Made by a program: the position numbers and the translations under genes. From a virus, in the UHGV virus genome UHGV-0152919: a stretch of 39,527 nt of DNA. One strand, given 5' to 3'. The notes beneath the pieces are model-generated. The model ran no database searches and had not been told where the DNA came from. It saw nothing but the letters and a program-made list of their open reading frames with translations. How positions within the stretch are numbered: the stretch's first letter is position 1; the number at the start of each line of letters is the position of its first letter. Below, piece after piece: positions 17,210 to 18,135 of this stretch.

Positions 17210-17387
17210 TTATTAACCTCATTACTGGTTGGGAAATAAGGTTGCGGTGCCGGGTGCCTCCCGGTGTCCTTTAGCTGGTTATCCACCGTGGACGGGGGAA
17301 TAAGGAGAAATAATGGACAGATATAACCATTTCCCCGCGTGCGCTTAGCCGCATTCACCGCAACGGAAAGAGCATTCCTGGTGGACC

Positions 17388-18135
17388 TGTAGATTGGGAT
17401 ATGAACCCGTTACAGGAGAATGCTCTTACCTGTTACGTGCTCCGTTTCGTGGAGCTAACGGCGGGTGATCGGGCCGCACCAGACTGGACTTATTTCAGCG
17501 TTATGCTCATGCCAGAGAATCAAACTGTGATGGTCGGTGCTGAACTCCGACACAGGGTTGTAGCAAGCCCCGCAAAGCGCGCACTACTGTAGTTGCGGCA
17601 CATCAGCCTGTGCATTCACCACAATGTTGAGAACACTGGTTGTCACGCTGCAACGCAACATTTATTCGTAGATTGGGATATGACCCCGTTACGCCAGTGT
17701 TCTCAACGTTGTAGTGCCGGTTACGGTTCCGGCCAGGCCTCTTCCTCAACGGGGTGTTCTCCATACGGACTACCGTTTATTGGTCGTTCCTGCGGTTTAT
17801 GTTGTGAAGCCAGATGCTTATCTTCTGGTTGCTTCAAAGAGCTGCACTTCATCACAACGGTAAGAGCACTCGATGCATTTAAGCCAAGCCCCATAAGGGA
17901 GAATGCCCTTACCTGTTGTGTTGTGATGACCGGTGCTGATCTCCGGCTTGCGGTTATTTCAGACTCTCACGGGCGTTTAATTGCCCCGCCGAACAGCTCT
18001 TTTCCGCAATAGCTGCAATGTCTTTCGCGCATCAGCCTGCGCATTCATCACAACGGTAAGGGTACTTCGTAGGGATTCGAACCCTCTGCCAAGCTCGGCG
18101 ATCTCCGACGTCGCAAAATACCCTTACCTGTTGTG
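17388..18135. repeat. repeat-rich, ORF-poor structured region (several direct-repeat families, an 18-bp inverted repeat, tRNA T-arm-like fragment)
   Basis: 25-mer gtagattgggatatga(a/c)cccgttac at 17388 and 17668; cccttacctgttgtg at 17906, 18121, 18560; inverted repeat 17622-17639/17694-17711; agggattcgaaccct at 18071-18085. Confidence 0.5.

Follow-up and report, generated by a model that had tools for sequence, protein, structure and literature searches.

A tandem array of two-part RNA modules in the untranslated ban operon leader of a P1-like phage

What is encoded between the tciA gene and the tRNA-Thr gene of a P1-like phage? The question is raised by virus genome UHGV-0152919, a stretch of 39,527 nucleotides (nt) that we refer to as the window, in which positions 17,210 to 18,135 consist of repeated sequence for which a preliminary description, made from the letters alone, reported no convincing minus-strand coding sequence. 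We agree with that report, as each minus frame contains 12-19 stop codons. The sequence of the window is that of a P1-like phage, with 100% identity to Escherichia phage JL22 across 17150-18350 and ~99% to P1 over the aligned parts. The evidence given below supports well the view that the interval 17241-18135, read from the minus strand, is a leader of the C1-controlled ban operon, an untranslated RNA that is built of tandem two-part units, in which a long hairpin (H) is followed by a branched module (M).

An exact search of the window recovered all the repeat families of the preliminary description, with coordinates that were off by 1-4 nt for two of them. The 25-mer GTAGATTGGGATATGA(A/C)CCCGTTAC lies at 17389 and 17668 (the first had been placed at 17388), CCCTTACCTGTTGTG at 17906, 18121 and 18560, as described, and TCATCACAACGGTAAG at 17849 and 18045 (described as 17853 and 18046). 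A repeat search found the inverted repeat 17622-17639 / 17694-17711 to be complementary at 17/18 positions and to extend to 23 nt at 91%. The T-arm-like sequence AGGGATTCGAACCCT is present at 18071-18085, and the strands of the 10-base-pair (bp) stem that had been described with it, GGTAAGGGTA (18055) and TACCCTTACC (18119), are exactly complementary. Since any given 15-mer is expected 7e-5 times in the window, both strands included, these repeats are not due to chance. They form the arms and loops of five long minus-strand hairpins, H5 to H1, with folding energies of -34 to -49 kcal/mol (z -4.2 to -6.5); 0/200 dinucleotide shuffles folded as well. Furthermore, a covariance model built solely from type-A copies of M (model R1) gave four matches in the 39.5-kb window, all on the minus strand. 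Along that strand the array reads H5 with an M-like leader, two tRNAs, H4-M, H3-M', H2-M, H1-M of type B, and tciA, with four H+M units in 17241-18135 and a fifth unit upstream of tRNA-Asn and tRNA-Thr:

18494..18574, minus strand: H5, in the first unit, upstream of the tRNAs; arms CACAACAGGTAAGGGCGCTG and CAGCGTCCTTTCCTGTTGCG; -37.9 kcal/mol, z -4.3
18049..18135, minus strand: H4, with an arm duplex of 21 bp; -42.7 kcal/mol, z -5.9
17920..18054, minus strand: M of type A ('M137'); R1 75.5 bits, expectation value (E) 3.8e-17
17853..17920, minus strand: H3; -34.5 kcal/mol, z -5.2
17801..17858, minus strand: degenerate M-like element, called with low confidence; stem GUUGUG...CACAAC around hairpin CCAGAAGATAAGCATCTGG
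17619..17714, minus strand: H2, the inverted repeat of the preliminary description; arms CUACAACGUUGAGAACACUGG and CCAGUGUUCUCAACAUUGUGG; -49.2 kcal/mol, z -6.5
17524..17625, minus strand: second M of type A; R1 68.7 bits, but itself a seed member of R1
17359..17437, minus strand: H1; -35.8 kcal/mol, z -4.2
17241..17364, minus strand: M of type B, STnc100-like, in the 5' leader of tciA; R1 28.7 bits, E 4.5e-5

In M137, the closing stem P1 has its 5' strand at 18046-18052 and its 3' strand at 17922-17928, and these enclose hairpin P2 (18027-18042, loop GGCUGA), a variable centre (17948-18026) and hairpin P4 (17929-17947, loop AGAUCAGCA). The second type-A copy carries compensatory variants of both hairpins, P2 at 17598-17613 (GCACA/UGUGC) and P4 at 17533-17551 (GUCGG/CCGAC), and has its P1 3' strand at 17526-17532. 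Over the degenerate element the R1 match is weak (17801-17897, 17.5 bits, E 0.036). The unit adjoining tciA, with P1 UGCGGUG/CACCGCA, P2 at 17341-17352 and P4 at 17250-17264 (CCGGGAGGCACCCGG), ends 33 nt ahead of the tciA start codon at 17209. It gives the sole notable Rfam signal in the interval, a match of the small RNA (sRNA) family STnc100 to 17243-17362 at 34.4 bits (E 4e-6), which does not reach the gathering score of 47; the STnc100 model matched neither type-A module at E up to 10. As the STnc100 consensus also contains the M core, this unit is treated as a sister subtype of M, type B.

The structure of M is that of a four-way junction, in which a closing stem P1 of 7-9 bp (GUUGUGGUG/CACCACAAC) is followed by an invariant AAU, P2, an insert and P4. 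P2 and P4 are 5-bp hairpins (GCGCA-GGCUGA-UGCGC and GCCGG-AGAUCAGCA-CCGGC), the insert between them is hypervariable (2-174 nt) and can shrink to 2-12 nt, and the 3' side of P4 abuts the P1 3' strand with no spacer. P1 measures 7-9 bp in 85/95 units having H. Among 128 distinct M cores, the first seven P1 pairs are 93-98% paired, with double-sided changes at two positions (GC 94/UA 19/AU 10 and UA 86/GC 32), P2 is 99% paired with compensatory changes at 3/5 pairs, and P4 is 96% paired with such changes at 4/5 pairs; when the partner is shifted by one or two columns, pairing collapses. A separate alignment of 54 sequences had 95.8% of its cells paired and 12 pairs changed on both sides, with 0/500 shuffles as high, and its slid-partner controls were 27-54% paired. 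The loop sequences GCUGA/UCAGC of P2 and P4 are 99% complementary and essentially invariant, without covariation, and a P2-P4 loop-loop contact, like that of the D-loop and T-loop, seems plausible, the complementarity being partly fixed by the search patterns used to collect the copies.

H, a hairpin of ~20 bp whose tip varies, stands directly ahead of M in 103/136 distinct M copies. Re-measured H stems (n=104) have a median of 19 bp, 72 of them being 18-20 bp, and are made from 89 different arm sequences; in the window, the arm duplexes that were measured have 21 and 19 bp, and in the family the mode is 19-20 bp, or ~two helical turns. The last 4 nt of the H 3' arm are at the same time the first 4 nt of P1, so that the base of H and P1 cannot both form fully. 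Covariation links these 4 nt to the 5' arm of H as well as to the 3' strand of M: at one position the counts are U:A/A 66 and G:C/C 19, and at the next G:C/C 59, U:A/A 16 and A:U/U 7. Two mutually exclusive helices are therefore both under selection, which would imply that H and M fold sequentially or as a switch. The idea that P1 is extended, to 15 bp, where H is missing was rejected for type A, in which the median is 7 bp without H and 8 bp with it. Read in the tRNA sense, the M stems have 62 G·U pairs to 15 A/C mismatches and the H stems 179 to 16, an excess that fits RNA of that sense. Together, the stem covariation in more than 100 relatives, with paired segments kept by compensatory changes, and this strand bias strongly support the structured RNA proposed in the preliminary description.

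One copy of the 25-mer lies in the loop of H2 and the other in that of H1 (17668-17692 and 17389-17413; minus strand GUAACGGGKUCAUAUCCCAAUCUAC). Variants of it are found in H loops of unrelated phages (loci L041 and L005), for example GACGGGCUCAUAACCCAAUCCAUCC in mEp460, and it may be a functional apical motif. The loop of H3 (UCCCUUAUGGGGCUUGGCUUAAAUGCA) is 92-95% conserved within tRNA arrays of virulent Felix O1-like phages; in one of them, Citrobacter phage Moogle, it is 92% identical (L008:2501-2548) and lies just 5' of a tRNA-Arg, and in these phages the hairpin around it is shorter and lies 12 nt before tRNA-Arg(TCT), where no M module was detected. At the tip of H4, the T-arm-like AGGGTTCGAATCCCT (18071-18085) is 1 nt from the 3' arm. 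Direct reading of the sequence added three small hairpins:

18295..18312, minus strand: P4-like hairpin GCCGGAGACGTACCCGGC, ending 4 nt ahead of tRNA-Asn
17717..17732, minus strand: small hairpin CCGGAACCGTAACCGG, directly before H2
17440..17454, minus strand: small hairpin CTCCACGAAACGGAG, directly before H1

The first, which R1 did not call, looks like the remnant of an M-type leader. Comparable small hairpins stand ahead of H in other units inspected, such as CUCCACGAAACGGAG, and the motif CTCCACGAAACGGAG also precedes H in three further loci (L016, L040 and L042).

The modules extend far beyond P1-like phages. A 137-nt piece containing M137 (17919-18055) matches DNA without annotation in lambdoid phages (mEp460, Stx2 phages) and Klebsiella phage IME207 at 97-99% identity, and M137 was found in 845/5426 complete E. 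coli genomes (~16%, about one in six), where it is never annotated. Separate scans of IMG/VR with the M 5' motif and 3' motif gave at least 120 loci each, and a scan of one genome per species with the 5' motif gave at least 107 stretches, from Enterobacterales, Halomonadaceae, Pseudomonas, many Betaproteobacteria and a few Alphaproteobacteria. The neighbouring open reading frames (ORFs) include CI-type repressors and Q antiterminators upstream and holins, N proteins and YfdP/YfdQ-region genes downstream, and M therefore occupies untranslated leaders of early (PL) and late (PR') phage operons; among these neighbour clusters no one conserved protein next to M was found. All tRNAs within 500 nt of M (27/27) lie on the same strand as the module, as expected from the proposal of a structured RNA beside tRNAs, and in several copies M stops 5-23 nt short of a tRNA. 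A Yersinia prophage has M between a boxB-like hairpin, which follows the promoter, and the ribosome-binding site of N, in the place of the ribonuclease III (RNase III) site in the lambda N leader. On these occurrences, the modules most likely belong to an RNA family with a wide spread among phages and prophages, most of which is not catalogued.

In E. coli K-12, R1 detected type-B elements between dicF and dicB in the Qin prophage (25.8 bits) and between kilS and kilR in Rac (23.0 bits), in positions that mirror that of the P1 type-B element before tciA, and gave a weak type-B match upstream of essQ. The first two (L312:21455-21582(+), NC_000913 1,649,454-1,649,581; and L315:10263-10391(-), NC_000913 1,418,262-1,418,390) have a 15-bp closing stem, begin right past an sRNA terminator (that of DicF or KilS) and end just before dicB or kilR, both of which are cell-division inhibitor genes; the flank AAAGUGAAUUUUGUGAUG is common to the two sites. 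In the virulent 158-kb Klebsiella phage Magnus (Ackermannviridae; L009:760-974), a full-length STnc100 above the Rfam threshold (52.9 bits) accompanies two type-A M copies, so that the M/STnc100 family is not confined to temperate phages. In one IMG/VR contig (L088:3947-4052) the M insert itself resembles a tRNA, one that has its D and T arms but no anticodon arm (34 bits with the Rfam tRNA model). In the course of these comparisons, two unannotated tRNAs (Ser-GCT and Arg-TCT) were found in IME207 (L007), and errors were found in public records: the tRNAs of D6 and Moogle are on the wrong strand, and SJ46 has coding sequences over its tRNA-Thr and tRNA-Asn genes (L003, L008, L013).

The other features of the operon around the array are as follows:

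near 18950, minus strand: C1-controlled ban promoter/operator
between the ban promoter and tRNA-Asn, minus strand: 'dicF-like' leader
18215..18290, minus strand: tRNA-Asn (GTT), called by ARAGORN; Rfam tRNA model 74.5 bits
18137..18212, minus strand: tRNA-Thr (TGT), called by ARAGORN; Rfam tRNA model 72.9 bits
16784-17209, minus strand: tciA, with tciB and tciC next in order
16434-16509, minus strand: tRNA-Met
14783-16153, minus strand: ban

H4 starts 1 nt past the CCA end of tRNA-Thr. The leader that follows the ban promoter (18756-18900, minus strand; GCGCGGCGGUAAGCAUGGCUGGG...GUUGCCAGGUUGACCAUGCGCCUAAGUGGCAAC) resembles a stretch just upstream of dicF in K-12 Qin, which should fall within the 190-nt DicF precursor, and it ends in a strong intrinsic terminator, GCCCATCTTCGGGTGGGCGTTTTTTTT (18756-18782). 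P1-like phages may therefore make a DicF-like sRNA from the ban promoter (Pban), with everything downstream needing read-through. In this leader, at 18610-18788 (minus strand), the Rfam models of permuted tmRNA (26 bits, E 0.012) and alpha tmRNA (11 bits) gave weak matches that are probably due to chance. Elsewhere in the window other known RNA genes were recognised:

35367-35541, minus strand: sok antitoxin, 89.7 bits, reaching the Rfam threshold
38999-39084, minus strand: C4 antisense RNA, 68.8 bits; its a1b1 target element is at 39152-39204, minus strand, 57 bits; both likewise reach their Rfam thresholds

Two plus-strand ORFs that the preliminary description did not mention cross the array and are annotated in the P1 record (NC_005856):

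17401..17592, plus strand: upl, 63 amino acids; only a sub-threshold Pfam match
17593..18012, plus strand: plp, 139 amino acids here and 125 in P1; no Pfam match

That the interval encodes the proteins Upl and Plp is the reading of the P1 annotation, which places their predicted promoters inside tciA, and both frames are open in the window. Comparison of P1-like relatives for a conserved coding frame found none: these phages differ by whole modules, swapped at common arm sequences, and the shuffling destroys or alters upl and plp while the RNA modules stay intact. P1 itself is without M137 and H3, and P7 and Ro157c2YLVW have H3 in place of the H4 of P1. In SJ46 a 279-nt deletion between the two 25-mers, spanning upl, fuses H2 and H1; in D6 and P7 one segment is replaced, in D6 by another M, a minus-strand tRNA-Ser and a hairpin; and Ro157c2YLVW has an inserted ORF and an extra tRNA-Tyr. 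The upl frame, which overlaps covarying RNA stems of the opposite strand, is thereby removed or broken in SJ46, D6 and P7, whereas the C-terminus of plp differs between P1 and the window phage through a 196-nt module insertion, and in P1 plp runs into tRNA-Thr. The curated P7 record has no coding sequence in the interval, other phages contain pieces of the sequence in which no ORF is retained, and no sigma-70-like promoter was predicted in 16400-19100 on either strand. Because the ORFs are broken among relatives, lack a significant Pfam match and have no sigma-70-like promoter predicted in the region, upl and plp are most likely by-products of the sequence, and we consider a protein-coding role for the interval highly improbable. 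A small peptide from a 23-codon ORF in M137 was also rejected, since this ORF is not retained in other units.

What, then, might the array do? We tentatively favour, at a little less than an even chance, the reading that the H-M units are cis-acting signals for RNA processing and stabilisation, cut by RNase III and/or RNase P. H would provide a double-stranded helix of the size cut by RNase III, and M a tRNA-shaped fold of the kind recognised by RNase P as well as a compact knot that should block exonucleases. Once H was cut or opened, the shared strand would be freed and P1 of M could close, and the units would in this way keep apart the tRNAs, stable small RNAs and mRNAs further downstream (tciABC, ban), each with defined and protected ends. 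RNase III is proposed because the length of H suits it, and RNase P because M looks like the portion of tRNA that this enzyme reads, its 7-9-bp stem stacking on a 5-bp hairpin, with a putative elbow-like contact between the loops. The C4 RNA of P1 is excised by RNase P. For the dicBF leader transcript, experiments have shown that it is processed by RNase III as well as by RNase E (bioRxiv 10.1101/2023.04.14.536235). The preliminary description had suggested tRNA-like processing elements; the likeness holds for the architecture, with its 7-9-bp closing stem running into a 5-bp hairpin, like the acceptor stem into the T arm of a tRNA, and with T-arm-like sequences at some hairpin tips, and the processing role is what we propose here by inference.

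Several points weigh against this reading. The assignment of RNase III to H and of RNase P to M is our own, and the pairing of the P2 and P4 loops is a complementarity without covariation that the search patterns partly set. The loops and AAU are invariant from Alpha- to Gammaproteobacteria, which is not explained by RNase III and RNase P, enzymes that read shape, and a specific further partner may exist. RCCA stands directly past P1 in only 10/128 copies and CCA within 8 nt in 53/128, a mild enrichment over the 37.7 expected, and P1 of the K-12 type-B elements, at 15 bp, is not tRNA-like. About one third of M copies (~36%) are followed by a terminator-like hairpin and a U run. STnc100 and PasD are reported as discrete Hfq-associated sRNAs, which fits a role in trans (bioRxiv 10.64898/2026.05.13.724894). 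In addition, CRISPR interference showed upl, plp, trnT and tci to be non-essential for plaque formation by P1 (PMC10695390), so that any role of the array would be an accessory one. A bolder proposal, which we hold to be rather unlikely, is that H-M represents an unrecognised and widespread class of tRNA-shaped RNA, whose AAU and kissing loops would dock on one host machine (RNase P, RNA polymerase or the ribosome), whose shared strand would be a switch timing or gating early and late phage operons, and whose five-unit array in P1 would be a dosage-amplified regulator or decoy made right after derepression.

Other readings divide the same evidence differently. The modules could be precursors of trans-acting, Hfq-dependent sRNAs like STnc100 and PasD, with M as a stabilising 5' domain and the insert or the A/C-rich tail as the seed. 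Two independent models relate the unit before tciA to STnc100, the STnc100 consensus is the same core followed by a terminator, as is found after the third of M copies mentioned above, and the tail that follows P1 contains few G and is probably single-stranded; a preprint presents PasD and STnc100 as sRNAs of prophages that have seeds and targets from RIL-seq (bioRxiv 10.64898/2026.05.13.724894). Yet the modules in the window are without terminators of their own, no terminator-like site having been found on the minus strand of 17210-18135, and it is the core that is conserved and not the insert or tail, the former going down to 2-12 nt, so that a conserved seed is not evident. Such sRNAs would still need excision, which makes this reading compatible with processing; as an explanation of its own we regard it as possible but unlikely. 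A different role in cis would be to modify RNA polymerase or to block Rho, like HK022 put RNA, M or H+M allowing transcription to pass terminators and long untranslated stretches. Invariant loops suit a fixed protein surface, M occurs in lambdoid PL leaders that show no N gene there and have an intrinsic terminator 58 nt downstream with early genes beyond, and Rho should have access to untranslated leaders of ~1.7 kb. In P1, nevertheless, the terminator that directly follows Pban (18756-18782) is upstream of all units, and a U run lies within 14 nt before H in 19/104 cases, terminators on which M cannot act. Moreover, M is also found downstream of Q and next to N, where protein antiterminators are already present, the STnc100-type RNAs are reported as discrete sRNAs, with an Rfam consensus that includes a terminator hairpin, and appear to end there, and put, by its description, consists of two adjacent stem-loops with no variable insert (PMC9378689). 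We think antitermination improbable. A nut-like (boxA/boxB) interpretation of the H 3' arm (UGCUCUUUCC) and P2 was dropped, as the boxA-like stretch is hidden in a 20-bp stem, and many members have other, unrelated sequences there that covary.

The swapping of modules also suggests that the units might act as DNA, as recombination linkers or miniature mobile elements that shuttle cassettes of tRNAs and accessory genes, their folding being incidental. Modules are gained, lost and swapped among P1-like phages at common arm sequences, M137 is 97-99% identical across phages that are otherwise unrelated (P1-like, lambdoid and Klebsiella siphoviruses), and units lie at insertion hot spots for accessory genes, such as Q-holin and terminase-portal. 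The stems, however, keep their pairing by compensatory changes despite divergence, and tolerate G·U ~4 to 11x more than A/C, which is not expected from selection on double-stranded DNA; there is no fixed-length target duplication, the 196-nt insertion being bounded by a common 17-nt arm, as in homologous exchange, and no conserved recombinase is found nearby. Recombination is probably a consequence of the repeats and not their selected function, and this reading, too, has little probability in our view. An integron attC site (CACAAC...GTTGTG against RYYYAAC...GTTRRRY) was rejected, as the consensus is not matched, no integrase is nearby and the wobble pairs indicate RNA; a hammerhead-like CUGAUG lacks the rest of the ribozyme core and has no Rfam ribozyme match. 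Finally, the preliminary description had considered degraded tRNA copies. T-arm-like sequences do occur in 12/103 hairpin tips against ~1 expected, the L088 insert is a partial tRNA at 34 bits, and D6 and Ro157c2YLVW have real tRNAs in the equivalent slots. Against this, conservation with covariation is seen in the M core and H arms at hundreds of loci in several bacterial classes, and the core sequences are unlike tRNA and are missed by ARAGORN and the Rfam tRNA model; the modules form a conserved family of their own, and their origin as decayed tRNA genes is extremely improbable.

The consequences of these results reach beyond one locus. Two long-standing hypothetical genes, upl and plp, leave the map of a classic model phage and give way to defined RNA elements. 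The motif, which stands outside any Rfam family, spans many phage types and several proteobacterial classes and is tied to the poorly understood sRNAs STnc100 and PasD. In P1 ban, the lambdoid PL and PR' operons, and K-12 dicB and kilR, one element recurs in the untranslated leaders, and it can be studied directly in P1 or K-12. If the units are processing signals, they would explain how phage tRNAs, small RNAs and mRNAs are released from one transcript, and if the shared strand is a switch, it would be a new regulatory device.

Comparison with catalogued RNAs was made with Rfam 15, in which the region was searched at E up to 10, along with the whole window, and 14 related loci at gathering thresholds. 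No family of Rfam 15 covers H or type-A M; the families that appeared were only tRNAs, C4, sok, isrK and one STnc100, and matches to mir-142, tmRNA_permuted, YrlA and ALIL were due to chance or lay on real tRNAs. The bacterial Y RNA family (YrlA, RF02553) gave a sole match of 25.6 bits, against a threshold of 69, spanning two real tRNAs. In the window ARAGORN and Rfam called only three genuine tRNAs, and no family reached threshold in the interval, which is the outcome of the covariance-model search that the preliminary description had proposed. The motif sequences of M and H were not encountered in the literature searched. The term undescribed, used in that description, is thus right for most of the array, and it fails for the unit adjoining tciA, kin to a catalogued sRNA.

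Several known RNAs resemble the modules, that sRNA among them. STnc100 (RF02076) and PasD, which a 2026 preprint relates as prophage sRNAs (bioRxiv 10.64898/2026.05.13.724894), share with M the core UGGUGAAU followed by a 5-bp hairpin, a variable centre, a 5-bp hairpin and a CACCA closing stem. UGGUG/CACCA, AAU and the two 5-bp hairpins are common to both, the type-A model reciprocally matches 17241-17364 (E 4.5e-5), and both are prophage-borne, near Q, holin and tRNA regions. They differ in that the window copy is below the Rfam threshold and without a terminator, in that the type-A loops are different (GGCUGA, AGAUCAGCA), and in that a preceding H and a tandem array were not found described for STnc100; the passages of that preprint that were consulted do not describe the wider M family, the H hairpin or the arrays (bioRxiv 10.64898/2026.05.13.724894). 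C4 of P1/P7 and the CI RNA of P4 (RF01695), which are cut out of a longer operon transcript, are also small RNAs of phages that have a long closing stem and two hairpins, with ...CCACC at the 3' end, but no sequence or model match to C4 was found in 16000-19200, C4 has no variable insert, and C4 has defined targets (a1b1, a2b2). The species 1/2 RNAs of T4 (rnaC, rnaD) are stable RNAs of ~120-140 nt, of unknown function, that are co-transcribed with phage tRNAs; rnaC has a T arm directly beside its closing-stem 3' strand, like H4, and species 1 is a substrate of RNase III in vitro. R1, however, had no match in the tRNA region of T4, the sequences are not similar, and T4 has one copy of each and no array. 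HK022 put, of ~70 nt, lies directly downstream of an early promoter and ahead of the terminators that it suppresses, a position similar to that of M in lambdoid PL leaders and unlike that in P1, where a terminator precedes the units, and, going by its description, differs from M in having neither the variable insert nor the closing stem. Miniature inverted-repeat transposable elements do not correspond to the units either, as the insertion boundaries are common 17-nt arms and the stems covary.

The likeness to processed leaders and to tRNA itself is one of geometry and position. H is a ~20-bp helix in an untranslated leader, between a regulatory RNA and the next gene, as are the RNase III leader helices of the lambda N leader, the T7 early sites and dicBF, although in dicBF the mapped RNase III site is upstream of DicF, outside the M element. 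M has neither a T- or D-loop consensus nor an anticodon arm or conserved CCA, and tRNA and tmRNA finders miss it. In geometry alone, however, M resembles tRNA and tmRNA, with a closing stem of ~7 bp continuous with a 5-bp hairpin and a second hairpin whose loop can pair with that of the first, and, as in the tRNA-like domain of tmRNA, a large insert takes the place of the anticodon arm.

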